Translations under genes and position numbers: made by a program
Shown: piece by piece, positions 9,876 to 26,412 of the stretch
Numbering within the stretch: the first letter of the stretch is position 1
How the letters are laid out: each line of letters begins with the position of its first letter
Origin: an uncultured Verrucomicrobiae bacterium
Lineage (GTDB): Bacteria > Verrucomicrobiota > Verrucomicrobiia > Limisphaerales > JAFGQR01
NCBI GenBank assembly: GCA_963788655.1
Contig: CAWBHS010000072.1
Location: 256,001 to 320,000 of the forward strand
Length of the DNA stretch: 64,000 nt
Direction: 5' to 3'
Notes under the pieces: model-generated
What the model saw: only the letters and a program-made list of their open reading frames with translations
Database searches by the model: none
Told to the model about the DNA's origin: nothing

Positions 9876-10015
9876 TGCGCGTTGCGAGCGTTTGACCTCC
9901 CGATTTCCGCCCCTTATGCTCCGGCCATGCTTGCACGGATACTTTTGCCTCACGGTGAGCACCATGGTGCGTGCTCCCGAGGTGGCGTTGCCTCACCCTC
10001 ATCCCGGCGGTCCAG

Positions 10016-10906: not shown

Positions 10907-11153
10907 GCGAGCCGAACCGCGAAGAGTTTTGAACGGCTTCATATATCCGGCCGCGTCAATGCGGGAAGCCTTCAGTGTTCGAGTAACAAAGGATTGGCTG
11001 GAACGCCAATCGCAGTCACATCGCCACGGTGCGTTGGCGGGGGAGTTCCGGAGTCAGGTTCAGCGGGTTCAAGCGGTAATCCTGATCGGTCAAATTTAAC
11101 CCGCCTACGCTCAGATCCGCCCAGCGTTTGAACCACCGACAGTTAAACCTTGG

Positions 11154-11695
11154 CTATTGCTGTTTCACTATCGCCAAACGAAAAAGGGCCTGCATGCTCT
11201 TCATGGGAGCCCGCGCCTGCCAGACTTCCAGAGCGCCATCTTGGGCAATGCGCCCGCGAGCTTCGACCAATTGCCAATTCGGCGGGTGCAACGTCAACGA
11301 GAGTTCCGGTTCGTAGGCGAGTTCGGTTTTGAGCGGATCGACCCGGTAGGTCAGCGTGAAGTAGTTGGTCCCCGCTTCCTGGGCGGTGCCGCCTTTCGGC
11401 CGGATCGCGGCGAGGTCCGACGATGTGCCGACCGGATCGAGTCCGAGCGCATATTCCACCAGGTTGGCGAGGCCATTGTGATCGGGGTCCGCGTCGTCCA
11501 GCGCATTGAGATCCGGTAATAGCCTGACGTTGGCACCTCAAGTCGCCATTGCGCATAGACGCCTCCGCCGTCCGGCCCCGGAGTTCCGTCGTGGCAATAA
11601 TTGGCGCCGTAATAACCCGCTACGCTCGTGCTCAACGTCCAGCTTCCTTGTGCCAAGGCGCTGGTAAATTGCGGATCGGTGTTGTCGAAAATCAA
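11154..11695 (-). pseudogene. Remnant of a secreted protein: truncated golvesin/xanthan-lyase-CBD-like domain joined out of frame to a DxDxDG..N..EYALGLDP tail
   Basis: DNTDPQFT..GSWTLSTSVAGYYGANY...GYYRISMRWT in one frame; DADPDHNGLANLVEYALGLDP in another; in-frame TGA upstream; no signal peptide. Confidence 0.55.
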
Positions 11696-11916
11696 GGGGA
11701 TGCGTCAACATTCTTCAAAATTGCGACGAGGTGGGCGGCCAAAAGGCTTACATGATTGTCAGAAGCGTTGGTTTTGGCTTACCCTGGTACGGTCGCCGCC
11801 CAGGGCCTGGAATCCACGTTCGACCCGCTATCGCGGTAATACCTGATGTGAAAATGAAATGTTGAAATGAATCTCCGCCAGAAAGGATTTGCAGACGGGG
11901 CAGTTTACCGTCGAGA

Positions 11917-12432
11917 ATGACTGGCGAGACGGTGAAAATGGAAATAACGGAACAACCGGACCGGAAGAATCGCATCGATATTCCGTGGGATCTCGGCGAA
12001 TGGGTGGACAAATCCACGCTGGTGCGGTGGATTGTGGAGGATATCGAAACGCTGGATTGGGAGAATCCGGAGCTGAAAGAGTTGCTGCAACGGCGTCTGA
12101 ATTATCAGCCCCGGATGCTGCTGCAGTTGCTGACTTATGCCTACGCCACCGGGGCGTTTGGCGCGGATGAAGTTGAACTGGCTTTCTATGACAAAGCATT
12201 CGGTCCGTTGGGCTGGAACAAGCCGCCCAATCTCCGCGCCATCCAGCGGTTTCGGCGGGAGAATCGGGGGTTGATCAAATGGACTTTGGTGCAGTTGCTG
12301 CGGCGCGCCGTGCGCAGCAAGATCGAACTGGGCGACCGGCTGTTGCCGGGATTGCAGCGTTGCCTGGTGCAAAACGCCGTCGAGCGGCTGGATCTGGCCC
12401 GGTACGTGGACCTCGCGGCGGCGGAAGATTAG
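11917..12432 (+). CDS. Stand-alone DUF772 (IS1182/IS5-like transposase N-terminal) domain protein; no DDE domain
   Basis: YQPRMLLQLLTYAYATG...PPNLRAIQRFRRENR resembles the IS1182 Y.P.MML.LL.Y.Y..G...PD..TI.RFR pattern; only ~165-171 aa. Confidence 0.7.
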   Translation: MTGETVKMEITEQPDRKNRIDIPWDLGEWVDKSTLVRWIVEDIETLDWENPELKELLQRRLNYQPRMLLQLLTYAYATGAFGADEVELAFYDKAFGPLGWNKPPNLRAIQRFRRENRGLIKWTLVQLLRRAVRSKIELGDRLLPGLQRCLVQNAVERLDLARYVDLAAAED

Positions 12433-12441
12433 GCGTCTGGT

Positions 12442-13071
12442 TCAAGCGCTTTTCAGCACGATCCGCGTCACGATGTTGCCGGCGTCGCGGCAGCGGTCGG
12501 TGACCTTTTCCACCAACTCGAACAAATCTTTCAGGAAGATGACCTTGGTGGCTTCGACGCGGCCGGAGTAAAGCTCCCGTAGTTGCTCCACGACAAACTT
12601 GTCGGCGTCGCCTTCGATCTTCTGGAGTTGGCCGTTCATCAGCCGGGCCTTTTCAAGGGTGATCCCTTGACGGAGTTGCCGGATCATTTCCATGAGCGTG
12701 CAAGTGGCCTTTTCCAGCATGTCCACCTGCGGTGAAATATCGATCGACTCAAACAATTGCGGGGCGAGCAAAAGCCGCTCGGCGATTTTCTCGATGGCCT
12801 TGGGGATTTTGTAGAGCAGATTGGACAAATCCTCAATGTCTTCCCGCTCCATGGTGGTGACGAAGTTGGTACAGAGCGCGTCGCAAATTTCGTAGGTGAT
12901 GGCCTTGTCCTTGCGCCGGGAGGCGATGAATTCGTCGAGCGTTTTGGCTTCCTTCGGGTTTTGCGAGAATTTCTTCAGGGACTGCACACTGTGACAGACT
13001 TCCTGAGCACTGGCCTCCAGCAGGTCGAAGAACCGGTCTTCTTTTCCCAATAATCGTTGTAGCGAAACCAT
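12442..13071 (-). CDS. DUF47 family PhoU-like phosphate transport regulator (copy 1, orphan)
   Basis: FFDLLE, FVT.MEREDI..L, IEGDAD, KDLFELVEKVTDRCRDAGN, IVLKS; paralogous to copies 2 and 3. Confidence 0.9.
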   Translation of the reverse strand: MVSLQRLLGKEDRFFDLLEASAQEVCHSVQSLKKFSQNPKEAKTLDEFIASRRKDKAITYEICDALCTNFVTTMEREDIEDLSNLLYKIPKAIEKIAERLLLAPQLFESIDISPQVDMLEKATCTLMEMIRQLRQGITLEKARLMNGQLQKIEGDADKFVVEQLRELYSGRVEATKVIFLKDLFELVEKVTDRCRDAGNIVTRIVLKSA

Positions 13072-13180
13072 AACCAGGGATACCTAGCATATCCGACCGT
13101 CCGTTCACCACAAAAAACTGTGGGGGTGTGGTTGGGCTCGCGCGGTGCATCCCCAGGTTGTCGGTGACTCGGCCTCATCC

Positions 13181-13250
13181 GCCGCGTGGGCGCACGCGGC
13201 CTACAAGGAGAACGGCACTTGCCTGTAGGCCCGGTGCCCTCACCGGGTGT
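13181..13250. repeat. REP-like palindrome pair, family H
   Basis: gccgcgtgggcgcacgcggcctaca ... tgtaggcccggtgccctcaccggg. Confidence 0.6.
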
Positions 13251-13494
13251 CCGCTAGCGCCGCCATTCCTGTCGATTCGGATGCCGCGCCAACGTTCGAG
13301 CCGACGGGAATTTCGGCGCGCCATGGATTTGAGGTCGCTCGCGTTGCATTACGATCGGCCAATTTGTTCGTCGCTCGCGATGAATTTCATGGCGGAGTCT
13401 TCACGCGATACTTCGCGAAGTTGTCATTGCCCGTGGGCCGTTCCGGGTTTAGCCTGCCGGCCTTGAACCAGAAAAAGCGAATGCCCAGCTCACT

Positions 13495-14010
13495 ATGAAA
13501 ACGAACCATCTCAAACAACGGACTGACCCGATCAAGCCTGCCGCCGATAATGAACTTTTAGTAAGTTCCATACCTGATTTTCGACGGGTCTTGGTCCCCA
13601 TTGATTTTTCGGAGATGTCAGTTGAGGCGCTGAAGTATGCCGTTCGGTTTGCGAAAAAATTCGGAGCGGAACTGACGCTTGTGTTCGTCCTCGAACCGGC
13701 GCCCTTCATGGTGGACATGGAAAACAATCCCCTCGCCTTATCCGACCAACAGGCCATTGTGAAAGCCCAGACCAGACTGGAACTATTGGCGTCCGCTCAA
13801 AACTCACCCGAGCCGATAAAGGTCCTCGTTCGCCAAGGCAAACCCTTCCGGGCAATTGTCGAGGTGGCTGAAGAATTGGACACCGAACTGATCATCCTGC
13901 CCACGCATGGTCACACGGGGCTGAGCCATGTCCTGTTAGGGAGTGTGGCGGAGAAAGTCGCGGAACATGCGCCGTGCGCCGTGCTGATCTTGCGGAAGCA
14001 CGACCAGTAA
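13495..14010 (+). CDS. Universal stress protein (UspA family)
   Basis: RVLVPIDFS, G.P...I...A, LIILPTHGHTGLSHVLLGSVAEKV..HAPCAVL. Confidence 0.93.
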   Translation: MKTNHLKQRTDPIKPAADNELLVSSIPDFRRVLVPIDFSEMSVEALKYAVRFAKKFGAELTLVFVLEPAPFMVDMENNPLALSDQQAIVKAQTRLELLASAQNSPEPIKVLVRQGKPFRAIVEVAEELDTELIILPTHGHTGLSHVLLGSVAEKVAEHAPCAVLILRKHDQ

Positions 14011-14096
14011 TCCGGACCAGGGCTGGGCCGGACTGGTGCCGGTGGGCGCCTTTCACTGGCCCGTGGAACCCGCTCCAGAGGTCGCGTCGCGTCGCC

Positions 14097-15167
14097 TTAC
14101 ACCAGTCCGCTGGCGTGGCAGAGCTTGAGCAGGACATAGCCGAGCAACGCGGTCACGGGCAGGGTAAGCACCCAGGCCCAGACGATGCGGCCCATGACAT
14201 GCCACTTGACGGCGTTGAGCCGTTTGGTGGCGCCGACGCCCATGATCGAGGTGGAAATGACGTGCGTAGTGGACAGGGGCATGCCCCACAGACTGGCCAC
14301 ATTGATCACTGCGGCCGCCGTTGTTTGCGCCGCAAATCCGTGAATCGGCTGAAGTCTTACCAACTTGGTGCCCATGGTGCGGATGATGCGCCAACCGCCC
14401 GTGGCGATGCCGGCGCCCATGACTGTCGCACAAGCGACTTTGACCCAAATTTCGATTTTAAAATCGGGAGTATGCATCCAGTTCATCCATCCCGGCAAAT
14501 GCTCCAACGCTCCGGACTTGGTGCCCGTCCATAGCGTCAGGGCGATGATCCCCATCGTCTTTTGGGCATCATTCAGTCCGTGGCAAAAACTCATCCAAGC
14601 GGCACTGGCCACCTGGGCCTTGCCGAAAACCCGGTTGAGCTTATGCGGGCGCCAACCGCGGAAAAGGGCGACCAGCAGTCCCATGAAGAGGAATCCGATC
14701 ACGGTTCCGCAAATCGGCGAGATAAGCATCGGCAGGATGACTTTGTGGAGCAGGCCCAGCGTATGGTGGGTCGCCGGGTCCACCACGGACCATTTAATGA
14801 CGTGCCAATCCCCGTTTACGGTGGCGACCGCCGCCCCGCACAATCCGCCAATGAGCGCGTGGCTGGAACTGGAGGGCAAGCCGAGCCACCAAGTGATCAG
14901 GTTCCAAATGATGGCCGCCAGCAGGGCCGCCATAATGGTGATCAGGGTGACGCTCCGTTCCTCGACGACGCCCACGGCAATCGTGGTGGCAACCGCTGTG
15001 CCGGCCAGCGCCCCGAGCAGGTCACACGTCGCCGCCATCGTCACGGCCTGGCGCGCGGTCAGTACTTTGGTGGCAACGCTGGTGGCAATGGCGTTGGCCG
15101 CATCGTGAAAACCGTTGACATATTCGAAGGCGAGCGCGACGAGAATCAAAAAGAGAATGAAGAGCAT
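14097..15167 (-). CDS. pit: Inorganic phosphate transporter, Pit family (copy 1)
   Basis: NGFHDAANAIAT, GLPSSSSHALIGG, HGLNDAQKTMG, GGWRIIRTMG, PLSTTH. Confidence 0.95.
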   Translation of the reverse strand: MLFILFLILVALAFEYVNGFHDAANAIATSVATKVLTARQAVTMAATCDLLGALAGTAVATTIAVGVVEERSVTLITIMAALLAAIIWNLITWWLGLPSSSSHALIGGLCGAAVATVNGDWHVIKWSVVDPATHHTLGLLHKVILPMLISPICGTVIGFLFMGLLVALFRGWRPHKLNRVFGKAQVASAAWMSFCHGLNDAQKTMGIIALTLWTGTKSGALEHLPGWMNWMHTPDFKIEIWVKVACATVMGAGIATGGWRIIRTMGTKLVRLQPIHGFAAQTTAAAVINVASLWGMPLSTTHVISTSIMGVGATKRLNAVKWHVMGRIVWAWVLTLPVTALLGYVLLKLCHASGLV

Positions 15168-15179
15168 GGCGCCGCGGGC

Positions 15180-15809
15180 TTACGAGTGCTTGAGCACGAT
15201 GTGGAAAACGATGTTGCCCACATCCCGGCAGCGATCAAATACCTTTTCCAGCAACTCGAGCAAATCCTTCATCACGATGACCTTCTTGCCCTCGTGTTCG
15301 CCGGTGTAAAGCTCTTGAAGGGAATCGAGCATCAGCTTGTCGGCTTCGCCTTCAATCGTCTGCAACCGGTCGTTTTGCAGTTTGACGGTTTCCAAGTTAA
15401 CTCCTTTGCGCAGTTCCTTGACCATGAGCACCACCACTTCGGCAGCCTGGTAAAGCAGTTTGACGTGCTGGGAGAGATCCACACCTTTCGTGAATTTGCC
15501 CGAAAGCAAGTAACGCTCGCCAAATTTTTCAGAGTTCTTGGGAATTTTGTAAAGCGCACTGGAAAGAGCTTCGATGTCCTCTCGCTCCAGAGGAGTGACA
15601 AACGTCTTGCACAGGTGCTCGGTCAACTCTTGCGAGAGTCGTTTTTCTTTGCGCCGGGCATTGACGAAGGATTCCAACGAATGATTCGCCTCCGGGGCAT
15701 TCAACATGGCCGTCAAACTCTCGATGGCGGCACGAGCTTCTTCCGCACTACCTTCCATTAACCGGAAGAATTTGTCGTCTTTGCTTAAAAGTCGTTGCAG
15801 GGAAAACAT
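15180..15809 (-). CDS. DUF47 family protein (copy 2)
   Basis: FVTPLEREDI, IEGEADK, LEKVFDRCRDVGN, IVLKHS; immediately upstream of pit. Confidence 0.92.
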   Translation of the reverse strand: MFSLQRLLSKDDKFFRLMEGSAEEARAAIESLTAMLNAPEANHSLESFVNARRKEKRLSQELTEHLCKTFVTPLEREDIEALSSALYKIPKNSEKFGERYLLSGKFTKGVDLSQHVKLLYQAAEVVVLMVKELRKGVNLETVKLQNDRLQTIEGEADKLMLDSLQELYTGEHEGKKVIVMKDLLELLEKVFDRCRDVGNIVFHIVLKHS

Positions 15810-15823
15810 AACTAGGGAGATTT

Positions 15824-15840
15824 TTTACATAATCGTAACA
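15824..15840 (-). promoter_or_regulatory. Pho-box-like 11-bp direct repeat
   Basis: Plus strand TTTACA-N5-GTAACA (minus strand TGTTAC-N5-TGTAAA); nearest base lies 15 nt from the A of the DUF47-2 ATG. Confidence 0.6.
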
Positions 15841-15983
15841 AAAGCGCACGTACTTTTTTTGAAACAGATTTCCAGCGATTCGGTGGTAGAGAGTCCCGCC
15901 GATCTGGCGACAGAAACCACCTTCGATATTGGCGTCGGGAATGACGATTGGCGGGATTGGGAAACTGACAGTCTCCCGACGGG

Positions 15984-17057
15984 TCAGTGTGCCCAGCCCA
16001 ACAGGAGCAGCACCCGCAGGCAAAGATAGCCCAACAATGCAGTGATGGGCAGCGTGAGCACCCAGGCCCAGACCATCCGGCCTACCACGCCCCATTTCAC
16101 TGCACTCAGACGCTTGGTGGCGCCCACGCCCATGATGGAGCCGGAGATCACGTGCGTTGTGGAGAGGGGCATGCCGAAGTGCGTGGCCGCCTCAATCACC
16201 GCCGCAGCGGTGGTTTGGGCGGCACAGCCATGGATGGTTTGCATCCGCACCACTTTATGTCCCATGGTCTTGATGATGCGCCAGCCGCCCGCCGCCGTGC
16301 CGGCCGCCATGGAGATGGCGCAGACCACTTTGATCCAAACCGCGACGTCAAACGTGGGCATTTTCAAAAAGGATAGCCAGGCCGGCAAATCATCAAGCAC
16401 TTTGGATTGGGTGGCCGTAAACAAGGTCAAGGTGATAATCCCCATGGTTTTTTGGGCATCGTTGGTTCCGTGACTGAAACTCATCCACGAAGAACTAAGC
16501 CATTGTAACTGACCGAACGTGCGGTTCACGCGATTCGGCTTGGCGCTGCGAAGAAAATACAAGAGCAGGCCCATGACCATGAAGCCGACCAACAAGCCCA
16601 CCACTGGCGCAATGAACATGGGCGCGATCACCTTGGGAATCAATCCGGACCACTGGTGTTTGGTTTCGTCAAAGAACGCCCACTTTATGACGCCAAGGTC
16701 GCCCTGGGCCGAGGCGAGCGCGGCGCCACACAGCCCGCCAATGAGCGCGTGGCTGGAACTGGAAGGCAATCCGATCCACCAAGTGAGCAAATTCCAGACA
16801 ATGGCACCAAGGAGCCCGCACAGGATGGTGTATTCACTGATGGAACTGGCGTCCACCAGATCCTTGCCAATCGTTTTGGCGACCGCGGTGAACGCCAGCG
16901 CGCCGAGGAGGTTGAAGCTGGAGGCCAGAATAATGGCCTGGCGCGGGGTCATCACTTTGGTGGAAACCGAAGTGGCGATGGCGTTGGCCGTGTCGTGAAA
17001 GCCGTTGATGTATTCAAACGTCAGCGCAATCAGGATTACAAAGAGTATCAGGATCAT
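15984..17057 (-). CDS. pit: Inorganic phosphate transporter, Pit family (copy 2)
   Basis: NGFHDTANAIAT, HGTNDAQKTMG, PLSTTH. Confidence 0.95.
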   Translation of the reverse strand: MILILFVILIALTFEYINGFHDTANAIATSVSTKVMTPRQAIILASSFNLLGALAFTAVAKTIGKDLVDASSISEYTILCGLLGAIVWNLLTWWIGLPSSSSHALIGGLCGAALASAQGDLGVIKWAFFDETKHQWSGLIPKVIAPMFIAPVVGLLVGFMVMGLLLYFLRSAKPNRVNRTFGQLQWLSSSWMSFSHGTNDAQKTMGIITLTLFTATQSKVLDDLPAWLSFLKMPTFDVAVWIKVVCAISMAAGTAAGGWRIIKTMGHKVVRMQTIHGCAAQTTAAAVIEAATHFGMPLSTTHVISGSIMGVGATKRLSAVKWGVVGRMVWAWVLTLPITALLGYLCLRVLLLLGWAH

Positions 17058-17084
17058 GGTTTTGTGTGCGTCGGTGCTGGCAAC

Positions 17085-18176
17085 CTATTTCCATCCGAGG
17101 GCGCGAAAGAGCAGCATGGCCAGGTAGGCGACCAAGGCCGATACCGGCAGGGTAAAGACCCAGGCCCAGATGATTTTTTCAACCACCCCCATGCGGAGCG
17201 CGCGAAAGCGCCGCGAAGCGCCGACGCCGGCCACGGCGGCTGTGATGGTGTGGGTGGTGGAAACCGGAAAGCCCCACGCGGCCGCGACAGTGAGGACCGT
17301 GGCGGCGGTGGTTTCGGCCGCAAAACCGTGAATGGGTTTCAAGTCGGTAATCCGCCGCCCCAGGGTTTGAATAATACGCCACCCGCCGGCCGCAGTGCCG
17401 GCTGCCAGCGCGACCGCGCAGGCGACCTTCAGCCACGCAGAAATGGCCAAAGCTTCTCCGGGCGGGGCTTCGGACATCTTGAGGAAATTGAGCCAGGCAG
17501 GAATGTGGTCAAAGGTGCCTGCCTTGGTCGCCGCCACCAAAGCCAACACCATCACCCCGAGGGTCTTTTGTGCATCGTTATGACCGTGCGCGAAGCCAAT
17601 GAATCCGCCGCTGAAGATCTGGCACTTGCCGAACACCCGGTCCACTTTCTCGACCCGCCAGTTCCGGAGCAACCAATAGAGGAGGCCGCTGGCAAGGAAC
17701 GCGCCAACCAAACCCAGCAGCGGCGAGACAAACATGGGAATGATCACTTTGAAAAGCAGGCCGTTTCCCTGCCACCAATGCAGCCCGCCGGAAGCGGTCC
17801 AGATGATTTCGTTCCAATTACTGTGGGCCGCCGCCAGCGCGGCACCGCACAGACCTCCAATAAGCGCATGACTGGAGCTCACGGGCAAGCCCCACCACCA
17901 AGTCATCAGATCCCACACAATGGCCCCGAGCAGGGCGCAAATAATGGTGTTGGTGGTGATGATGCTGGCGCCGACCAGGTCGTGTGCCATCGTCTCCGCC
18001 ACGGCCGTTCCGATCAAGGCGCCGACCAGGTTGGTGACGGTTGCCAGCACAATGGCCTGGCGGGGGGTTAGCGCCCGCGTGGCCACCACCGTGGCGATTG
18101 AGTTTGACGTGTCGTGGAAACCATTGATGTAAACGAATACCAAGGCCAGCAGAACGAGAATGATAATGGCGGTCAT
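17085..18176 (-). CDS. pit: Inorganic phosphate transporter, Pit family (copy 3, most divergent)
   Basis: NGFHDTSNSIAT, GLPVSSSHALIGG, HGHNDAQKTLG, PVSTTH. Confidence 0.95.
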   Translation of the reverse strand: MTAIIILVLLALVFVYINGFHDTSNSIATVVATRALTPRQAIVLATVTNLVGALIGTAVAETMAHDLVGASIITTNTIICALLGAIVWDLMTWWWGLPVSSSHALIGGLCGAALAAAHSNWNEIIWTASGGLHWWQGNGLLFKVIIPMFVSPLLGLVGAFLASGLLYWLLRNWRVEKVDRVFGKCQIFSGGFIGFAHGHNDAQKTLGVMVLALVAATKAGTFDHIPAWLNFLKMSEAPPGEALAISAWLKVACAVALAAGTAAGGWRIIQTLGRRITDLKPIHGFAAETTAATVLTVAAAWGFPVSTTHTITAAVAGVGASRRFRALRMGVVEKIIWAWVFTLPVSALVAYLAMLLFRALGWK

Positions 18177-18195
18177 GACCGGAAAGGATTGGCGG

Positions 18196-18825
18196 TTAAG
18201 AGTTCTTCAGCACGATTTGAAAAATGATGTTGCCGGCGTTGCGGCAGCGGTCGAATACCTTTTCCAATATCTCGTAAAGGTCCTTTAGGATGACCACCCT
18301 GACGATGTCCTCTTCCTCCCCGTAGAGATGCTCCAATTCTGCCACCAGCAGCTTGTCGGCCTCGCCTTCCACTTTTTGCAGAGCGTCATTGTTGGCCTTG
18401 GTGCGCGAGAGATTAGGGCCTTTTTTCAAATCCGTTACCATCCGGTAAACCGTTTCCTCGGCAGTTTCGAGCATCTTGACGTGTTGCGAGAAACTCACGT
18501 CGCGGATTTTGGGCGCACTTAACAAGTAGCGTTCGGCGAATTTTTTGGTGGTCTTGGGAATGCGGTATAAGGCCCGGGCCAGCATCTCAATATCCTCGCG
18601 ATCCAGCGGCGTCGCGTAGCTGTCGCACAGCAATTGGTCGATCTCGGCGCCGATTTGCTGCTCCTGGTCGCGGGCGTGCAAAAAATCCTGAAGCCCCGGG
18701 GTGTCTTCAGTGGCGTTCAGGAGTTCGCCGAGCGCTTTTATGCTGGCTCGTCCTGCGTCGGAACTGGCTTGCAGCAAGCTGAAAAATTTATCTTCTTTGC
18801 TGAATAGCTTCTTCAGGGAAAACAT
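18196..18825 (-). CDS. DUF47 family protein (copy 3)
   Basis: TPLDREDI, VEGEADK, LEKVFDRCRNAGN, IVLKNS. Confidence 0.92.
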   Translation of the reverse strand: MFSLKKLFSKEDKFFSLLQASSDAGRASIKALGELLNATEDTPGLQDFLHARDQEQQIGAEIDQLLCDSYATPLDREDIEMLARALYRIPKTTKKFAERYLLSAPKIRDVSFSQHVKMLETAEETVYRMVTDLKKGPNLSRTKANNDALQKVEGEADKLLVAELEHLYGEEEDIVRVVILKDLYEILEKVFDRCRNAGNIIFQIVLKNS

Positions 18826-18839
18826 ATCGGCCTTATTCT

Positions 18840-19045
18840 TTCACAAGATTGTTACAAAAATTCAAAATCAGATTTGTGACAAATAGGTTACGGTCAGATG
18901 GCGGTCGAGTTACAAGTCCTAAATTCATTGGGTTTTTACGATTCCGGAAAGAATTGATTGACGCTTGCAAACCTGCAAACCATTGTCCCAGTCATCAAAC
19001 AACACCGTTGCGAGAATGTTACAAAGCCGACATTTGGACGTAACA
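18840..19045. promoter_or_regulatory. Divergent promoter region with 11/22-bp-phased Pho-box-like hexamers
   Basis: TTCACA 18840 / GTTACA 18851; GTGACA 18876 / GTTACG 18887 / GTTACA 18909; GTTACA 19018 / GTAACA 19040; AT-rich region between DUF47-3 and phoU. Confidence 0.65.
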
Positions 19046-19067
19046 AATAACTGCGAAAGAAAGGTGC

Positions 19068-20168
19068 GTGAACTCAATGCCAACTCATTTTGAGATAACA
19101 TTACAGCGCGACACGGATCGGATTCGCCAGAAACTCCTGGCCATGTGCGGCCTTTGCGAACAGGCCATTCAGACGTGCGTCAAAGCCCTGGCCGAGCGAA
19201 ACCGGCAGGTCGCCTACGCGGTCATCATTCGCGACCAATACATCGACGCGATGGAGAAAGAGGTGGATCGGCTCTGTCTCGAATTCCTCGTCCGTCAACA
19301 GCCCGTGGCCGCTTCGCTGCGCTTCGCGTACAGCACCATCAAGGTCAATCTCGAACTCGAGCGCATCGGCGACTATACCGAAAGCATTGCCCGGCAGACG
19401 TTGAAATTGATCCCGATGGATGTGCAGATTCCCACCGAGCGTTACCAGGAGATTGCCCAGTTGTCGCTGGCCATGTTGCACGACGCGATCAAGGCCTTCG
19501 TGGATCGCGATGAAGAACTGGCCCGGAAGACCATTCAGACCGAAGAATCGGTGGACCAGCTCAAGAGCAAGCTCAACAAGGACTTGGTCGGTTATTTCCA
19601 GGATCAGAAAATCCCCTTCGAGGCGCTCAATCCGCTGATGATGATCACCCGCCACTTGGAACGGATTTCCGACCAGGCGCGTAACATCAGCCTGGAAGCG
19701 CTGTATGTGGGCACCGGTGAGGATGCCAAACATCAGGGGGCGGACGTGGTAAGGGTATTGTTCGTCGATGAACACAATTCCTGCCGCAGTCAAATGGCCG
19801 AGGCCATCGCGAACGGATTGAACCAACCGCGGTTTGTCTTCGCCAGCGCCGGTCTGGAGCCGAAGCCCATCGAGCCGGCGACGAAGGAGTTCATGAAATC
19901 CAAGGGCTTCGAAGTGTCGCACCTGGCCTCCAAGGCGGTCAGTCAGGTGCCCAACCTCGACCATTTTCAAGTGGTGGTGGCTCTGGCCAAAGCTGCCCGG
20001 TCGGCGTTTCCCGCCAATGTGCGCAACTTGGTTTTCCTGGACTGGGCCATCCAGGATCCTTCCGCGATGGAAGGCAGTCCGGAGCAGGTCAAAACCGCCT
20101 ACGAAGAAACCTTCCGCTTTATCGAAGAACACCTCAAAGATTTGATTGGAGCCATTTCGGGACAATAA
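19068..20168 (+). CDS. phoU: PhoU fused to a C-terminal ArsC/LMW-PTP-like domain lacking the catalytic cysteine
   Basis: PhoU motifs D..ID.ME.E.D, QQPVA..LR, ELERIGDY, HLERISDQARNI; C-terminal VLFVDEHNSCRSQMAEA, SAGLEP, WAIQDP. Confidence 0.92.
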   Translation: MNSMPTHFEITLQRDTDRIRQKLLAMCGLCEQAIQTCVKALAERNRQVAYAVIIRDQYIDAMEKEVDRLCLEFLVRQQPVAASLRFAYSTIKVNLELERIGDYTESIARQTLKLIPMDVQIPTERYQEIAQLSLAMLHDAIKAFVDRDEELARKTIQTEESVDQLKSKLNKDLVGYFQDQKIPFEALNPLMMITRHLERISDQARNISLEALYVGTGEDAKHQGADVVRVLFVDEHNSCRSQMAEAIANGLNQPRFVFASAGLEPKPIEPATKEFMKSKGFEVSHLASKAVSQVPNLDHFQVVVALAKAARSAFPANVRNLVFLDWAIQDPSAMEGSPEQVKTAYEETFRFIEEHLKDLIGAISGQ

Positions 20169-20191
20169 ACCAAAGAACGAACGAATAAATT

Positions 20192-21115
20192 ATGAGCAAA
20201 AATACAACCATACGATGGAGCCTCCGGCTGTGCGCCGCGATGGCAGCAACCGCATGCCTGATCCAAACCGGCTGCAAACCTAAAGAAGGGGGCGAGGGCG
20301 GCACCGGCAAAACAACGATTCAAGTCAAAGGCTCGGATACGATGGTAAACCTGGCACAGTCCTGGGCGGAAGCGTACAAGAAGGTCAATCCCGACGTGGA
20401 GGTGGAAGTCTCTGGCGGTGGCAGCGGCGTGGGCATCGCGGCGCTGATCAAGGGAGGGGTGGACATTGCGAACGCCAGTCGCGACATGAAGGCCCCCGAA
20501 ATTGAGCAGGCCAAACAGAACACCGGGAAGACGCCCAAGGAAACCATTGTCGGCTACGACGGGCTGGGCATTTACGTCAACAAAGATAATCCGCTGGACG
20601 CAATCAGCGAAGAGAAACTGGCCCAGATTTACGAGGAAGGCGGCAAGATCACCAAGTGGTCGCAATTGGGCATCAAAGTGCCTGGTTGTGACAGCGATGA
20701 AATTGTCGTGGTCAGCCGCCAGTCCAGCTCGGGCACCTACGAATTCCTGCGGGAACACGTGCTTAAGAACAAGGACTACCGGATGGGCACAAAAGACATG
20801 AATGGTTCCAAGGAAGTGGTCGAACTGGTGGGCAGCACGCCTTGCGCGATCGGTTACAGCGGCATGGGCTACGCCACCCCGGCGGTCAAAATGCTGAAGA
20901 TCTCGGCGACGGAAGGCGCCCCGGCGGTCGCGCCATCGGTGGAAAATACCATGAGCAAGAAATACCCCATCGCCCGTTCCCTCAACTGCTACACGCTCGG
21001 CGAACCGCAAGGCGAAGTGAAGAAATACCTGGATTGGATCAACTCCGATGCCGGGCAGAAGATTGTGGTTGATACCGGTTACGTTCCGCTGAAACCGGAG
21101 GACCGTACCAAGTAA
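20192..21115 (+). CDS. pstS: Phosphate ABC transporter substrate-binding lipoprotein
   Basis: Lipobox-like TGC, KGSDTM, GGGSGVGI, DIANASR, RQSSSGTYE, AIGYSG.GY, YPIAR.L. Confidence 0.95.
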   Translation: MSKNTTIRWSLRLCAAMAATACLIQTGCKPKEGGEGGTGKTTIQVKGSDTMVNLAQSWAEAYKKVNPDVEVEVSGGGSGVGIAALIKGGVDIANASRDMKAPEIEQAKQNTGKTPKETIVGYDGLGIYVNKDNPLDAISEEKLAQIYEEGGKITKWSQLGIKVPGCDSDEIVVVSRQSSSGTYEFLREHVLKNKDYRMGTKDMNGSKEVVELVGSTPCAIGYSGMGYATPAVKMLKISATEGAPAVAPSVENTMSKKYPIARSLNCYTLGEPQGEVKKYLDWINSDAGQKIVVDTGYVPLKPEDRTK

Positions 21116-21135
21116 GTTTTTTTCGGTATTCACCG

Positions 21136-21227
21136 GGTACGATGAGAGGCGCACGGCGATAATCGATCAGGGCTTAGCGCCCTCCTTTCGCCAGGCTGAG
21201 GTAACTTGCCGGCGCCCTCATCGTGCC
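21136..21227 (+). other. Stem-loop between pstS and pstC
   Basis: ggtacgatgagaggcgc pairs with gcgccctcatcgtgcc. Confidence 0.55.
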
Positions 21228-21255
21228 TTGACGCTGGCCGGAATTTGACGATGAC

Positions 21256-22200
21256 ATGAGCGATCCCATCATCCCACCCACTGAACCTGTGTTTGTGGTC
21301 CGGAAGGCCGTCCGTCCGGCCTGGGCCGTTTATGGCGAGTACGCGTTGCAGGCGACCATTTACCTGTGTGGCATTAGCGCCATTATCTTCGTGCTCAGCA
21401 TCTTCTTTTTCGTTTTCAAAGAAGCCGTGCCAGTGTTTGGGGATCCGCATTTCAGTGTCAGCCAATTCCTCTTTACGACCAAGTGGTATCCCACCTCAGC
21501 CGTCAATGTGCGTTACGGGGTGCTCGCCATGATCGTGGGCACGTTCAGCGTTACGGGTCTGGCCATGCTCATTGCGGTACCGTTCGGGCTTGGGGCGGCG
21601 ATTTATGTGTCCGAGTTTTGCGGTCCGAAGATGAAAGAAACCCTGAAGATTGTCATCGAGCTGTTGGCGGCCATCCCGAGTGTGGTCTGGGGATTCATTG
21701 GCTTGACGGTTATCAGTCGCTTGATTGTGACGTACACCGGCGCGCAGGTCGGCGTCAACATTCTCAATGGCGGCGTCATCCTGGCCCTGATGAGTGTGCC
21801 CATCATCGTCTCGATCAGCGAAGACGCTTTGAAGGCCGTGCCGGATTCTTACCGCGAGGCCGGTGTGGCCCTGGGCGCCACCCGGTGGCAACTGATTTGG
21901 CGGGTCTTGTTGCCGGCCGCCAAAACGGGCTTATTGGCGGCGGTGCTCCTGGGCGTCGGCCGGGCGGTTGGGGAAACCATGGCCGTGCTGATGGCCACCG
22001 GACACGCGGTGCATATTCCCCACAGCGTGCTGGACTCGGTGCGCACGCTCACCGCCAACATTGCCGCCGAATTGGGGGAAGCCCCGGCCGGCTCACCGCA
22101 TTATCGGGTGCTGTTCATGATCGGGGTACTGCTGTTCTCAATCACCTTCGTGGTGAACCTGACCGCCGACCTGATCGTGCGGGGAATTCGCAAGAAATGA
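21256..22200 (+). CDS. pstC: Phosphate ABC transporter permease
   Basis: ELLAAIPSVVWG, EDAL.AVP..YRE...ALGATRWQ, GRAVGETMAVLM. Confidence 0.95.
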   Translation: MSDPIIPPTEPVFVVRKAVRPAWAVYGEYALQATIYLCGISAIIFVLSIFFFVFKEAVPVFGDPHFSVSQFLFTTKWYPTSAVNVRYGVLAMIVGTFSVTGLAMLIAVPFGLGAAIYVSEFCGPKMKETLKIVIELLAAIPSVVWGFIGLTVISRLIVTYTGAQVGVNILNGGVILALMSVPIIVSISEDALKAVPDSYREAGVALGATRWQLIWRVLLPAAKTGLLAAVLLGVGRAVGETMAVLMATGHAVHIPHSVLDSVRTLTANIAAELGEAPAGSPHYRVLFMIGVLLFSITFVVNLTADLIVRGIRKK

Positions 22201-22219
22201 ACCGAATGCCGACCAGCAG

Positions 22220-23380
22220 ATGTTTACCTTGTTAAAAACATATTGGACCTGGGTCGCCCTGGAAGTTGTCATGTCCGCCGTGGGGGCCTTGGTGGCGGGT
22301 TGGGTGGCGCGCAACCGCGGGCGCAGTGAACTGGGATGGGGATTGCTGGTGCCCATTGGCTCGCTGTTTGGTTCGTTTGTTTTCCTTCTTTTCTTTCCTT
22401 GGCCCGCACTACTGCTCTTGTTTTCCCCGGTCGTGTTTGGTCTCGTCTTGTTGGTCTTGGGGGCATTGCCCCGCCTGCCCGTGGACGCTCAAACCAAGTT
22501 TGGGGAAAATTATTTTGTCCGGTTGCGCTCCCATTACGAGTTGGTGGCCAAGTGGATTTTCTTCGGCATGGCCGCGGCCATGATTGTCCCGCTGCTGACC
22601 ATTCTGACTTACCTGGTCGTCAAAGCCATGCCCTCGTTGAGTCTGTCCTTCCTCATCGACGTGCCCAAGAAAGGCATGACCGCCGGGGGGATCTGGCCGG
22701 CGTTTATTGGCACCATTTACTTGGTCGTCATCTCGCTGGCGGTGGCGGCGCCCATTGGGGTGTTGGCGGCGGTTTATCTGAATGAATACGCCAAGGACAA
22801 CTGGTTCAACCGCATCATCAACCTGGCGGTCATTAATCTGGCCGGGGTGCCCAGCATTGTGCATGCGCTTTTCGGTATGGGGGCGTTTGTCTATGCGGCC
22901 CATTTGGGCGCGTCGGTTCTGGCCGCCTCGTTGACGCTCGCCATCATGACGCTGCCGGTGATTATCGCCAGCACCCGCGAAGCGCTGGCCAGTGTGCCGC
23001 AAACGTTTCGCGAAGCCTGCTGGAACGTTGGCGCGACCCGTTGGCAGACCATCAAAGCGGTGGTCCTGCCCAATTCCATCAGCGGGATTCTGACGGGCGT
23101 CATTTTGCAAGTGAGCCGGGCGGCCGGCGAGACGGCACCCATCTTGTTCACCGGCGCAGTGTTTTACAAAGCGGTCCAACGCGGTGACCTGTTTCCCTAC
23201 TACCTGAACGATCAGTGCATGGCGTTGTCCATGCATCTTTACACGTTGGCGACCCAGGTTCCCAATGTCCCTGAGTCCATTCCGTTTGCCACCGCGGTGG
23301 TGTTGCTCGGCTCGGTGCTGTTGGTCAACGCGGCGGCCATCTCCCTGCGCGCCTATATGCGCTCCCGCAAGAAATGGTAA
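22220..23380 (+). CDS. pstA: Phosphate ABC transporter permease with ~90-aa extra N-terminal membrane module
   Basis: GGIWPAFIGT, YLNEYA, LAGVPSIV, RAAGETAP; extension containing VARNRGRSELGWG. Confidence 0.93.
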   Translation: MFTLLKTYWTWVALEVVMSAVGALVAGWVARNRGRSELGWGLLVPIGSLFGSFVFLLFFPWPALLLLFSPVVFGLVLLVLGALPRLPVDAQTKFGENYFVRLRSHYELVAKWIFFGMAAAMIVPLLTILTYLVVKAMPSLSLSFLIDVPKKGMTAGGIWPAFIGTIYLVVISLAVAAPIGVLAAVYLNEYAKDNWFNRIINLAVINLAGVPSIVHALFGMGAFVYAAHLGASVLAASLTLAIMTLPVIIASTREALASVPQTFREACWNVGATRWQTIKAVVLPNSISGILTGVILQVSRAAGETAPILFTGAVFYKAVQRGDLFPYYLNDQCMALSMHLYTLATQVPNVPESIPFATAVVLLGSVLLVNAAAISLRAYMRSRKKW

Positions 23381-24159
23381 ACCCCACGTCCATGCCTCAC
23401 TCCGACAACTTGCAGGTGGAAGTCCGGGATCTCCGGCTGGCTTATGGCCATAAAGAGGTGATTCACGGCATTTCCTTCGACATATATCGCAACGAAATCC
23501 TGGGCGTGATTGGGCCGGCGCAGTCGGGGAAGACGTCCCTGTTGCGGTGCATCAATCGCACCATCGACTTCACGCCGGACGCGCACGTCTCCGGCACCAT
23601 CCGGGTGGATGGCGAAGATGTGCGTCGCACGAAAAACATTTATCGTCTGCGCCGCAAAATTGGCATGGTCGCGCCTTTGCCCGTGGGCTTGCCGATCAGC
23701 ATTTATGACAACGTGGCCTTTGCTCCGCGTGCCGCCGGCCTGACGCGGCGGAGCGAACTGGATGACATCGTCGAACAGTGCTTGCAGCAGGCGGCGCTGT
23801 GGGATGAGGTCAAGGACCGCCTGAACAGTCTGGGCACCAAGCTCTCGGGGGGACAGCAGCAACGGTTGACCATTGCCCGGGCGCTGTCGCATCAACCCGA
23901 AATTCTGTGCCTGGATGAGTTCTCAATTGCCATCGATCCGGTGACTACCATGCGCATCGAGGACGTGCTGAAGGTGCTGCGCCAGGACATGACCGTCATC
24001 CTCGTCACCAATCTCACCCAGCAGGCGCGGCGATTGGCCGACCGGACCATGTTTCTGTGGAACGGCAAAATCGTCGAAATCGATACCAACGAAGTCATTT
24101 TCTCAGACACGCCGAAAGATCGACAGACTTACGAATACGTGAACGGCATATTCGGATGA
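23374..24159 (+). CDS. pstB: Phosphate ABC ATPase PstB1 (intact signature; degenerate Q-loop, D-loop and H-switch); alternative start 23392
   Basis: GPAQSGKTS, AALWDEVKDRL, LSGGQQQRL.IARAL, LDEFSIAIDP, VTNLTQQA. Confidence 0.9.
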   Translation: MVNPTSMPHSDNLQVEVRDLRLAYGHKEVIHGISFDIYRNEILGVIGPAQSGKTSLLRCINRTIDFTPDAHVSGTIRVDGEDVRRTKNIYRLRRKIGMVAPLPVGLPISIYDNVAFAPRAAGLTRRSELDDIVEQCLQQAALWDEVKDRLNSLGTKLSGGQQQRLTIARALSHQPEILCLDEFSIAIDPVTTMRIEDVLKVLRQDMTVILVTNLTQQARRLADRTMFLWNGKIVEIDTNEVIFSDTPKDRQTYEYVNGIFG

Positions 24160-24193
24160 ATCCCAATCTACAACTCTCCCGGACCGCCTGAAC

Positions 24194-24979
24194 ATGAGCG
24201 ATCCCGTCAATCACAGCCTGGCCTGCATCGCCACCCGGAACCTGAACCTGTGGTACGCCAAGTTTCAGGCCTTGAACAACATTCACGTCGATATCAAGCA
24301 AGGGATCATCACCTCACTCATCGGCCCCTCGGGCTGTGGCAAGACCACCCTGTTGCGTTGCTTCAACCGGGTCAACGAGCGCTATGGCTACGTGACCACG
24401 ACCGGCGAGATCAAGCTGCTGGGCAAGAACATTTACGATCCGGACGTATCCCTGATCGAGCTGCGCAAGTCGGTGGGCATGGTCTTTCAACGGCCCAATC
24501 CGCTGCCGATCTCGGTCTATGAAAATGTGGTGTTTGGTTTGCGTATCCACAACTCCCGGCGCGACCTGGGCAAATCCATGCTCGACGACGCAGTCGAGAA
24601 GGCGCTCACGGAAGTGGGCTTATGGAACGATCTCAAGGACCGCCTCCAGACCAAGGCCACCGGATTGTTGCTGGAGCAACAACAAAAGCTTTGCATCGCC
24701 CGGTTGCTGCCGTTGAAACCGGAGATCATCCTGATGGACGAACCCTGTTCCGCCCTCGACGTGGAAGGTACCCGCGCCATCGAGGAACTGATGTTTGAGA
24801 TGAAAGGCCGCTACACCATTGTCATCGTCACTCACAACATGGCCCAAGCCCGTCGGGCCAGTGACGAGTGCATTTTCATGTTGATGGGCGAACTCATGGA
24901 GCACCGGCGCACCGAAGATTTATTCCTCAATCCCCAGAATCCCAAAACCGCCGAATACATCGAAGGCCGTTACGGTTGA
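24194..24979 (+). CDS. pstB: Phosphate ABC ATPase PstB2 (intact Walker A/B, Q-loop, H-switch; degenerate signature)
   Basis: GPSGCGKTT, GMVFQRPNP, LLLEQQQK, MDEPCSALD, VTHNMAQA, YIEGRYG. Confidence 0.92.
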   Translation: MSDPVNHSLACIATRNLNLWYAKFQALNNIHVDIKQGIITSLIGPSGCGKTTLLRCFNRVNERYGYVTTTGEIKLLGKNIYDPDVSLIELRKSVGMVFQRPNPLPISVYENVVFGLRIHNSRRDLGKSMLDDAVEKALTEVGLWNDLKDRLQTKATGLLLEQQQKLCIARLLPLKPEIILMDEPCSALDVEGTRAIEELMFEMKGRYTIVIVTHNMAQARRASDECIFMLMGELMEHRRTEDLFLNPQNPKTAEYIEGRYG

Positions 24980-25126
24980 GTAATGACCAATGCCCAAGGG
25001 CCAAAGACCAAAGAATGACGACGGCCCAAGCTCCAATGACCAGAGGGCAAGCCACGCAGTTTTAGGCTGGACCTTGGGATTTGGAAATTCTCTGGTGCTT
25101 GGTCATTGGCCATTGGTCATTACTCA
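24977..25126. repeat. Family E inverted repeat element
   Basis: tgagtaatgaccaatg ... cattggtcattactca (perfect 16-bp ends) with internal heptamer-like repeats. Confidence 0.8.
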
Positions 25127-25185
25127 ATGGTGGCTTCCTACCAATCTTGCTTCCCACGGACGCCGCCATCCCTATACTTGGCGCT

Positions 25186-25665
25186 ATGAATTACGTGGGC
25201 ATTGGCTACGATGTGCATGCGTTGGTATCTGGACGCAAGCTGGTGCTGGGCGGAGTCGAGATTCCGCACCGCAAAGGCTTGGACGGCCATTCCGATGCCG
25301 ACGCCCTGATGCACGCCGTATGTGATGCTGTGTTGGGCGCTTTGGGTGAAGGAGACATCGGGCAGTTCTTTCCCAACACGGATCCCCGGTGGAAAGGCGC
25401 CCCCAGCAAGGTTTTTTTGGAAGAGGCCGCCCGGCAGGTTGGGGCCCGAAAAGGACGGTTGATCAATGTGGATGCCACCGTAATTGCGCAGCAGCCCCAA
25501 ATCTCACCCCATTTGGACGCCATGAAAACGAACATTGCCACGGCGTTGGGCATCGGTCCCCGGCAAGTAGGCATTAAAGCCACCACCAACGAGCGGTTGG
25601 GCTTTATTGGACGGGAAGAGGGTATTGCTGCCATGGCGGTCGCCAGTGTGGAATTGCCTGAATAA
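25186..25665 (+). CDS. ispF: 2-C-methyl-D-erythritol 2,4-cyclodiphosphate synthase
   Basis: [47 protein letters not shown]. Confidence 0.97.
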
Positions 25666-25740
25666 ACAAAGCGTCTCAATCCGTTCCCTTCCAGGCGACT
25701 CTTTAACGTTTCACGAAGACCTGACAGCCTATTAATCCCC

Positions 25741-26010
25741 ATGCCCAAAGCTGAAATTGGTTGGACCCGCCGCGATGACGCCGGTCAGAAATTCGACGTT
25801 TATGCCCAGCGGATTGGCGGAGATTGGCGGTTTTTCACACGCCAAGAACGCTATGAATCCTGGCAACCGGTGACCAAACCGCCCCTGGAAGACTGGCTGA
25901 AGCTGCTGGACGCAGTGCGCCGGCGGGTGAATCGACGCCGTTCCCGCCCGGAAGAGATCGACCGGGTTCGGCAGATGATTCGCGAGCGGTTTCCCGAAAC
26001 GGACGTTTAG
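25741..26010 (+). CDS. Small hypothetical protein (89 aa)
   Basis: Fills the gap after ispF; protein-like composition (W-rich, PPLEDW..LLDAVRRR). Confidence 0.65.
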   Translation: MPKAEIGWTRRDDAGQKFDVYAQRIGGDWRFFTRQERYESWQPVTKPPLEDWLKLLDAVRRRVNRRRSRPEEIDRVRQMIRERFPETDV

Positions 26011-26412
26011 GCGACAAGCTACATCGTCTAAGAGCGCGGCGATAGCTGGGGAGCGCCAAACGCCCCAGTTGTGCCTTTCCCCGTTGTTCGGCAGCGATTG
26101 AAGAAGCACCCGCAAAGCCCCGTTTCCGATAGGTTCAATTCTTGCTAAAAACCAAGCGACGGCTCGATTCGTGGGGAAGCACCCAGGCCATCCGGTCAGG
26201 GAAATAGTTGCTAAATCTTTGCGCCCGAATGCCGTTAGTACAAATGGGCTTACTGGGAAATTGAAGTCGGAGCCTGGCACGCGGCAGATGTTGCCCCGGC
26301 GGCGGGAAATCCGTTTTTGCTCAAACTAGCTGGGCAACTGGCATGGAATGAATTTGGCAATCAAAAGTTGTTTTGCGCGCGCCCATCCTTGGCAGTCCGG
26401 GCGCACGAGTCT

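Follow-up and report, generated by a model that had tools for sequence, protein, structure and literature searches.

A variant Pst cassette with a PhoU–pseudo-ArsC fusion and a predicted one-sided PstB pair, divergent from a Pit/DUF47 array in a Verrucomicrobiae bacterium

This work concerns a phosphate transport locus in a 64,000-nucleotide stretch of DNA, hereafter the window, from an uncultured Verrucomicrobiae bacterium (GenBank assembly GCA_963788655.1, contig CAWBHS010000072.1, positions 256,001 to 320,000 of the forward strand). In the window, three Pit genes and three DUF47 genes diverge from an operon encoding PhoU and Pst proteins; Pit carriers transport phosphate with low affinity and the Pst pump with high affinity. 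We think it rather probable that the locus is a Pho-regulon node made of two separable modules, namely a variant Pst cassette and an ordinary Pit/DUF47 array. As judged from sequence, the variant cassette differs from known Pst systems in carrying a PhoU fused to a pseudo-ArsC domain and a PstB dimer with one degenerate ATP site. The fusion and the PstB pair are inherited together; the Pit/DUF47 array and an unusual extension of PstA are not part of this set.

The PhoU::LMWPc fusion and the PstB1/PstB2 pair

The locus was mapped using a listing of open reading frames (ORFs) and Pfam and NCBIfam profile scans of the window. The plus-strand genes have the order phoU::LMWPc-pstS-pstC-pstA-pstB1-pstB2. 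Their products belong to the same five protein families as the canonical PstSCAB-PhoU system (E. coli type; structures 9k3x, 1t72 and 4q25), and PstS, PstC, PstA and the PhoU part all pass their NCBIfam cut-offs. Conversely, the variant has phoU as its first gene rather than its last, and this phoU encodes an extra ArsC-fold domain. It also has two diverged PstB genes, not one homodimeric PstB, and one of the two ATP sites is predicted to be degenerate.

The fusion is encoded by an ORF at 19068-20168 (+). Relatives, and a database entry of 363 residues (P0001), begin at the ATG at position 19077, which is probably the true start of the gene rather than 19068. The protein consists of two PhoU repeats (residues ~7-219), a short linker and a domain with the low-molecular-weight (LMW) phosphatase/ArsC fold (~228-363). 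The PhoU part scores 159 bits with TIGR02135, above the cut-off of 130.25 bits, and PF01895 matches it in two stretches. According to the accessible part of PMC5686610, the PhoU family is marked by two E(D)XXXD motifs. Both are present in the fusion, and none of the 20 aligned sequences differs at E98, G101, D102 or at E198, R199, S201, D202. The C-terminal 140 residues score 47.9 bits with PF01451 (cut-off 23.2).

The fusion was also modelled with AlphaFold2 (AF2) using the 20-sequence alignment. The mean predicted local distance difference test (pLDDT) value was 89, with block means of 84-98 over residues 11-210. In the model both domains are well folded, and residues 221-225, which link them, have low confidence. 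The predicted template modelling score (pTM) was 0.61, so the relative orientation of the domains is undefined in the model. In Foldseek comparisons, the PhoU part had the six-helix two-bundle fold, with template modelling scores (TMt) of 0.95 to 1t72 and 0.93 to 4q25. For the C-terminal domain, TMt values were 0.83-0.88 to the ArsC structures 8p5n, 1jl3 and 1jf8.

The nearest solved relatives of the C-terminal domain are arsenate reductases: the Synechocystis protein 2l17 (E 8e-14), Deinococcus ArsC2 (8p5n) and B. subtilis 1jl3. With the thioredoxin- or glutaredoxin-coupled arsenate reductases ArsC and the LMW phosphatases (2l17, 8p5n, 1jl3, 1jf8) it shares the fold, the P-loop backbone xxxNxCRS, the SAG element and the DP motif. 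Unlike them, it is fused to PhoU, has Asp in place of the nucleophile, lacks the resolving Cys residues and falls below the ArsC equivalog cut-offs (60.8 against 174.3 bits for TIGR02691, and 58.6 against 157.6 for TIGR02689). The P-loop of the window protein reads VDEHNSCRS, with Asp234 where the nucleophilic Cys of CX5R is expected. Across 81 family members the residue at this position is Asp in 77, Gly in two, Cys in one and Glu in one. The resolving Cys pair is replaced by Ala and Lys, since ALAKAARS of the window aligns with SLCGCGVN of 2l17. In the same 81 sequences, Cys is not among the five commonest residues of these columns.

Other positions of the domain are kept in most of the 81 sequences: Asn237 in 74, Arg240 in 67, Ser241 in 72, Asp330 in 79 and Pro331 in all 81. 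Mean conservation is 0.80 in the P-loop region, compared with 0.65 for the whole LMWPc domain, and the columns at or above 0.9 include D234, N237, C239, S260-A261-G262, D325, W326, D330 and P331. The conserved P-loop, SAG and DP elements are active-site elements in the enzymes. On its catalytic residues the domain would not be classed as an ArsC or LMW phosphatase, but the architecture of the anion pocket appears to be kept. The domain is predicted to be incapable of cysteine chemistry; it may bind phosphate, arsenate or a phosphoryl group without catalysing a reaction. An earlier reading of this DNA, made from sequence alone and referred to here as the sequence-only reading, had described a PhoU fused to a pseudo-ArsC domain. 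The profile matches, the substitution of Asp for Cys, and the PhoU and ArsC folds recovered with AF2 and Foldseek confirm that description. A fusion gene in a record labelled Desulfobacterium sp. (L063, 10001-11095) retains the nucleophilic Cys, in the sequence LFLCDHNSCRG; this form could be ancestral-like or reverted.

The last two genes of the operon encode the ABC ATPases PstB1 (23374-24159, +) and PstB2 (24194-24979, +). Neither reaches the TIGR00972 equivalog cut-off of 343.2 bits (the scores are 275.6 and 326.7 bits, respectively). Nonetheless, PstB is by far the best family for both. The two proteins are 37% identical to each other and are, respectively, 43% and 50% identical to the canonical PstB of the same genome. 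Motif positions were confirmed by alignment to E. coli PstB (PDB 9k3x). PstB1 has a Walker A motif (GPAQSGKT), an intact LSGGQ and a Walker B motif that keeps Asp-Glu (LCLDEF). Its Q-loop (MVAPLP) has no Gln, and its H-loop (VTNL) has Asn in place of His. PstB2 has a canonical Walker A, Q-loop, Walker B and H-loop; its signature is LLLEQ (LQLEQ in relatives) instead of LSGGQ. Each ATPase therefore fails the complete ABC motif set of Walker A, Q-loop, LSGGQ, Walker B and H-loop.

These differences are shared by relatives. For PstB1, the Q-loop Gln is absent in 64 of 64 sequences, LSGGQ is present in 63 of 63, the H-loop Asn in 61 of 61 and the Walker B Asp-Glu in 62 of 62. For PstB2, all 61 sequences have the Q-loop Gln, all 61 have a signature other than LSGGQ and all 59 have the H-loop His. 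In an ABC dimer, one subunit contributes the Walker motifs, Q-loop and H-loop to each ATP site, and its partner contributes the signature. The losses map to the Q- and H-loops of PstB1 and to the signature of PstB2; therefore, one composite site is degenerate and the other is canonical. The predicted heterodimer is thus of the type with one consensus and one degenerate site, and no exception to this pattern occurs among the 59-64 relatives compared for each motif. The sequence-only reading had called the two proteins reciprocally degenerate. This is right in that the motif losses are complementary. The stronger sense of the phrase, in which both ATP sites are impaired, was rejected because the losses converge on one composite site.

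Tandem pstB1/pstB2 genes are found in Firmicutes, where E. faecalis resembles the window in having two adjacent PstB genes in one pst operon. The E. faecalis proteins are 60% identical with all motifs intact, as given in the available portion of PMC12096839. Conversely, the window proteins are 37% identical, and their complementary motif losses are fixed across phyla. In the excerpted descriptions of the exporters MsRv1273c/72c, PatAB and BmrCD, which have one degenerate site, the deviations likewise all lie in one composite site. Those exporters have fused transmembrane domains, whereas the window encodes a binding-protein-dependent importer with separate ATPase subunits. The window also differs from them in the residues concerned: PstB1 keeps the Walker B Glu but has lost the Q-loop Gln and the H-loop His, and its partner has lost the signature. 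A complex prediction for PstB1 and PstB2 with the PhoU::LMWPc partner gave a score of 0.00 against a mark of 0.32, which counts neither for nor against binding.

Distribution and co-inheritance of the cassette

A scan with one genome per species identified 372 genomes that encode the fusion, and the best 80 loci were examined. By their record labels, these 80 span about eight phyla. There are 55 loci from Verrucomicrobiota and 12 from Acidobacteriota. Lentisphaerota, Fibrobacterota, Thermodesulfobacteriota and Actinomycetota (the last doubtfully labelled) contribute two each; two further loci are singletons and three are unlabelled. PstS, PstC, PstA and both PstB1-type and PstB2-type proteins are all encoded at the fusion loci with at least 4.9 kb of downstream sequence (57 of 57). 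PstS comes next after the fusion in 75 of the 76 loci with at least 1 kb downstream.

The reverse scan was done on metagenome loci and was seeded on the PstB1 alignment. From the 552 relatives that it returned, we retained the 80 best, all of them at least 73% identical. Where such a locus had at least 4.3 kb of upstream sequence, the full fusion was always there (21 of 21), and all 57 loci with at least 850 nucleotides of downstream sequence have a PstB2-type gene on that side. In a phylogenetic tree, the 26 rows of PstB1 group in a single clade, as do the 25 rows of PstB2. Both clades have a Shimodaira–Hasegawa-like approximate likelihood ratio test (SH-aLRT) value of 100, a long stem and short branches inside, and members of different phyla are mixed. 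Taken together, the linkage in both directions and the tree show that the fusion and the unequal ATPase pair form one conserved cassette. The conservation indicates strong purifying selection on the fusion and the PstB pair across phyla, and the cassette is probably mobile. The sequence-only reading held that all of the unusual features had co-evolved. That view survives for the fusion and the PstB pair, which are co-inherited in every testable locus in both directions, but not for the PstA extension or the Pit array.

We also sampled 301 genomes from the phylum of the window, scoring the eight best PstB1 candidates of each. A PstB1-type gene was found in three of the 301, with the fusion in cis in all three, and the fusion query matched five. 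Genome G001, from the same genus as the window, and locus L005 give the same values and are not independent.

Individual loci show further variation. In genome G147 (L202 = G147:C41:65000-77000, 7356-8285), PhoU residues 33-240 are joined directly to PstB2 residues 181-261. This remnant looks like the product of an internal deletion that removed the ArsC-like domain, pstS, pstC, pstA, pstB1 and the first part of pstB2. In G001, the match to the cassette PstS is split into residues 40-158 and residues 169-307 (L206, G001:C79, 4642-5448), which could reflect a frameshift or an assembly error. A locus labelled Fibrobacterota (L054) carries a canonical pstSCAB-phoU operon (1374-2132 (-) and neighbours) on the opposite strand, less than 10 kb from the variant cassette; the upstream repeats there are CTAACAC at 11-nucleotide spacing, a different flavour of half-site from those described below. 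In the relative G159 (94% complete), no canonical PstB was detected at E 1e-50 or better, and the variant may be its only Pst system.

The architecture had been proposed to be undescribed. This agrees with the literature, in that we found no paper on a PhoU-LMWPc fusion, on a degenerate-site Pst or on an unequal PstB pair in a search that lay outside subscription journals and bioRxiv supplements.

The Pit/DUF47 arm, the PstA extension and the shared control region

The minus-strand arm is arranged as DUF47-Pit-Pit, DUF47-Pit and a lone DUF47, and is broken by a plus-strand gene. Its first gene is DUF47/PhoU_div 'c' (18196-18825; PF01865 34.2 bits). PitC (17085-18176; 363 residues; PF01384, E 2.7e-90) and PitB (15984-17057; 357 residues; E 5.2e-97) follow. 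DUF47/PhoU_div 'b' (15180-15809; 32.9 bits) is directly upstream of PitA (14097-15167; 356 residues; full-length match to PF01384, E 3.1e-93), a PHO4 family phosphate carrier. The interrupting gene encodes a universal stress protein (Usp; 13495-14010, +; PF00582, E 1.2e-34). Beyond it is DUF47/PhoU_div 'a' (12442-13071, -; 209 residues; 33.9 bits), which has no Pit partner. The arm and the Pst operon are separated by 242 nucleotides. The gene content thus agrees with the sequence-only reading, which listed three Pit and three DUF47 genes divergent from a Pst operon, one control region for both arms, and four PhoU-fold proteins (three DUF47 and one PhoU by profile matches). It had also seen no frameshifts, and every reading frame of the locus is indeed open.

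All three DUF47 proteins pass the PF01865 gathering score of 24.4 bits (32.9-34.2 bits), and two of the three genes are directly upstream of a Pit gene. The three Pit proteins cover PF01384 profile positions 1-350 of 350, and score 140-152 bits against the 800 of the NCBIfam PitA exception model. Identities between the Pit paralogues are 51-63% (PitA and PitB 63%; PitC ~51-52% to both). Those between the DUF47 paralogues are 41-52%, with copy 'a' 49% and 41% identical to the other two. At these identities, the copies are therefore old duplicates. They are also the only Pit and DUF47 genes found in the 8.96-Mb, 86%-complete assembly. No Pit remnant was detected downstream of DUF47 'a' in a tblastn search with the Pit proteins (10900-13500, best E 0.34). 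Past this orphan, the window contains a fragment of an IS1182-family transposase (11917-12432, +; weak, 25 bits) and a short Golvesin_C ORF (11351-11695, -), which may mark a rearrangement boundary of the Pit array.

A Pit or DUF47 gene occurs within 7 kb of the fusion in 17 of the 62 loci with at least 3 kb of upstream sequence, and is divergent in 16. In the other 45 there is neither within 7 kb. The make-up of the arm varies, with DUF47-DUF47-Pit units common and the same-genus genome G001 having Pit-DUF47-DUF47-Pit. In the gene maps of 80 related loci, no Usp gene matched the one in the window at this position. The Pit/DUF47 arm is thus an ordinary, plastic and optional array that is separable from the cassette. 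The earlier view of the multi-Pit/DUF47 array as one of the co-evolved parts fails on this linkage, and on a composition that differs even within the genus.

Similar gene pairs are known elsewhere. In S. aureus the DUF47 (PitR) gene adjoins pitA, as reported in the consulted section of PMC11705898. The window shares with S. aureus pitR-pitA and S. meliloti orfA-pit the placement of a DUF47 gene directly upstream of pit. It differs from both in that one array contains each gene three times, as diverged copies (41-63% identical), in that this array is divergent from a variant pst operon and in that one DUF47 gene has no Pit partner.

Between the fusion and the ATPases lie PstS, PstC and PstA. 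The PstS family phosphate-binding protein (20192-21115, +) scores 229 bits with TIGR02136 (cut-off 206.6) and the PstC permease (21256-22200, +) scores 289.5 bits with TIGR02138 (cut-off 196). The PstA ORF (22220-23380, +) has 386 codons, and the model match begins only at residue 113. The permease core (22481-23380) scores 267.9 bits with TIGR00974 (cut-off 193) over residues 113-379. Ahead of it, and in the same frame, 87 codons (22220-22480) encode a hydrophobic N-terminal extension. In a DNA alignment with G001, the extension is an insertion of ~278 nucleotides, and the G001 PstA matches window residues 88-386 only. The distance from the pstC stop codon to the position of PstA residue 113 is 356 nucleotides in the window and 60-259 in 67 relatives, 58 of which have at most 108. 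We found no counterpart in 11 translated relatives, no second copy in the genome, and no look-alike in the ESM Atlas, where scores were at most 0.80. The GC contents of the three codon positions are 0.59, 0.45 and 0.69, which is coding-like; the extension may be a real N-terminus, and a GTG at 22481 would yield a PstA of canonical length. The extension is private to this genome. Hence, the extra membrane module noted previously is present as a hydrophobic extension, but is no member of a co-evolved set, being absent from the 67 relatives and from G001.

Downstream of PstB2 are genes for IspF (YgbB; 25081-25665, +) and for a sigma-54-dependent response regulator with receiver, AAA+ and Fis helix-turn-helix domains (26317-27756, +). 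Nothing was seen that ties either to the cassette.

The 242-nucleotide region between the arms contains two clusters of Pho-box-like, GTNAC-type half-sites. Cluster A (18840-18913) has TTCAC at 18840, GTTAC at 18851, TTCAA at 18861, GTGAC at 18876, GTTAC at 18887 and GTTAC at 18909. The spacings are mostly 11 or 22 nucleotides, and the cluster begins 15 nucleotides from the DUF47 'c' start codon. Cluster B (19018-19044) has GTTAC at 19018 and GTAAC at 19040, 22 nucleotides apart with a degenerate half-site between them, at 37-59 nucleotides before the ATG at 19077. The 64-kb window has a single exact match to GTNAC-N6-GTNAC, which falls in cluster A.

The same elements occur upstream of the fusion in 79 loci. 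Enriched hexamers are CGTAAC (32, where 3.8 are expected from shuffles), GTAACA (30) and GTCACA (22). The spacing of GT[ACT]AC pairs peaks at 11 (38 pairs), 22 (28) and 33 (23) nucleotides, against at most five pairs at any other distance up to 45. Such peaks are the signature of OmpR/PhoB-type direct repeats. Among 12 divergent DUF47/phoU regions (the window and 11 relatives), phased pairs are found near the fusion in all 12 and near DUF47 in 10. Clusters A and B are most likely PhoB operators, a prediction consistent with their phasing and conservation. According to the part consulted of a secondary source (PMC3131613), phosphate starvation represses orfA-pit in S. meliloti, and the PHO box of these genes is just upstream of the translation start. 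On that partial description, cluster A shares this PHO-box geometry near a start codon. Between 12300 and 25400, sigma-70 promoter-like and terminator-like sites were about as frequent as chance predicts: 5 of the former with 5.8 expected, and 15 of the latter with 15.2 expected.

In the whole genome, at least three of four phased GTNAC half-sites occur at only four distinct sites, the window included. Counting both strands there are eight hits, compared with two, none and four in three shuffles. One site lies on contig C99, 50-85 nucleotides upstream of a Porin_5 gene. This gene (467 residues; L118 = G000:C99:75000-84000, 1660-3147) precedes a canonical pstSCAB-phoU operon and probably encodes a Pho-regulated porin. 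The remaining two strong sites adjoin a transposase gene and an NAD(P)HX repair gene.

The operon on C99 is pstS-pstC-pstA-pstB-phoU, with a single PstB. Contig C63 encodes phoU-phoB-phoR, and no other PhoB or PhoR match in the genome scores higher. Thus, the cassette of the window is a second Pst system beside an ordinary Pho circuit. No PhoB or PhoR orthologue was detected within the window, as the sequence-only reading had noted; the best candidates are those on C63. A histidine kinase/response regulator pair at 33979-35055 (-) gives weak PhoR and PhoB matches (93 and 91 bits), and its members are not PhoBR orthologues. Pho-box-like repeats at both arms, together with phoU-phoB-phoR on another contig, allow a switch between Pit and Pst to be explained by ordinary control through PhoB. 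The suggestion that this switch represents a new sensing system is thus unnecessary, as no new sensor is needed.

Explanations and their consequences

In the account that we prefer, the variant Pst cassette would be transferred or inherited as a unit, and its ATPase would be an obligate PstB1/PstB2 heterodimer. Hydrolysis would occur at the canonical site, formed by the Walker A and B motifs, Q-loop and H-loop of PstB2 with the LSGGQ of PstB1. The other site, formed by the Walker motifs of PstB1 and the LQLEQ of PstB2, probably binds ATP, hardly hydrolyses it and has a structural or regulatory role. The dead ArsC-fold domain would bind phosphate, arsenate or a phosphoryl group, and so tune the restraint of this transporter by PhoU. 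PhoB, encoded on C63, would bind both repeat clusters. The variant Pst arm would then be induced by phosphate starvation. Repression of the Pit arm is probable under the same condition, given that cluster A lies against the DUF47 'c' start codon.

Several observations weigh against parts of this account. The single exact GTNAC-N6-GTNAC match is not significant alone, as at least one match arises in 43 of 100 shuffles. The GTNAC core is self-complementary, so the orientation of the repeats is not readable from it and does not separate activation from repression. On C63, PhoB scores 253 bits and PhoR 322 bits, both slightly below their NCBIfam cut-offs of 296 and 334. Two of the five fusion-positive genomes in the phylum sample (G300 and G147) have no detectable PstB1 or PstB2; in G300 the contig stops after pstS. 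The loci covered are the 80 best among 372 seeded on the fusion and the 80 best among 552 seeded on PstB1, and more distant members might break the linkage. Finally, 14 of the 81 fusions have another residue in place of the P-loop Arg, and four lack Asp where the nucleophile would be. A strictly conserved anion pocket is therefore not universal.

A more specific proposal is that PhoU-pseudoArsC is a direct cytoplasmic receptor for phosphate or arsenate. Binding at the P-loop would reposition PhoU on PstB1, the presumed non-hydrolytic subunit, and so gate an importer with one working ATP site. We treat this as a tentative possibility only, and are as cautious about the pocket proposed for it, which would consist of Asp234, Asn237, Arg240, Ser241 and Asp330.

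The dead domain might instead have no small ligand and serve as a protein adaptor or dimerisation module, for example by docking PhoU on PstB1 or by binding phosphorylated PhoR or PhoB. The strict co-occurrence of the fusion with PstB1 fits such a role, as does the presence of the P-loop Arg in only 67 of 81 sequences. E. coli PhoU is also reported, in the accessible part of PMC11705898, to interact with PstB and PhoR. However, the higher conservation of the active-site elements (0.80 against 0.65) is unexpected for a pure scaffold, and we consider this explanation unlikely.

The domain could also be an arsenate-specific sensor. An arsenate-bound P-loop would make PhoU shut the transporter, giving an arsenate-safe importer. 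Kinship with arsenate reductases, the nearest solved relatives, and the P-loop, SAG and DP elements as the best-conserved part of the domain would suit this idea. Yet the P-loop of LMW phosphatases and ArsC binds phosphate, sulfate and arsenate alike, sequence cannot separate arsenate from phosphate, and no ars genes were seen among the ORFs scanned (9971-27756); an arsenate-specific role thus seems rather improbable to us.

Least probable is one co-evolved complex of all the parts, including three Pit, three DUF47 and the extended PstA, that senses phosphate or arsenate and switches without PhoBR: a control region of 242 nucleotides common to both arms, four PhoU-fold proteins, a window without a PhoBR orthologue and divergent DUF47/Pit arms beside the cassette in 16 of 62 loci speak for it, but the PstA extension is missing from relatives and from the same-genus genome, 45 of 62 loci have no Pit or DUF47 within 7 kb, arm composition varies within the genus, and Pho-box-like repeats precede both arms with phoU-phoB-phoR elsewhere.

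We return, then, to a locus of two separable modules. Its Pit/DUF47 arm is ordinary and its PstA extension is a private feature, unlike the core of the cassette. For annotation, the genes of this cassette are labelled merely PhoU and PstB in hundreds of genomes. The PstB pair would exemplify a binding-protein-dependent importer with a fixed degenerate ATP site, a design best documented in exporters. It is not settled how phosphate status is read by PhoU, or how PhoU holds back the Pst pump. A regulator fused to an anion-pocket-like domain, together with an ATPase in which one site is crippled, points to a separable sensor with a defined docking partner. If the fusion were a direct receptor, ligand sensing by PhoU would reside in a separable, assayable domain, and what PhoU senses would become directly testable.

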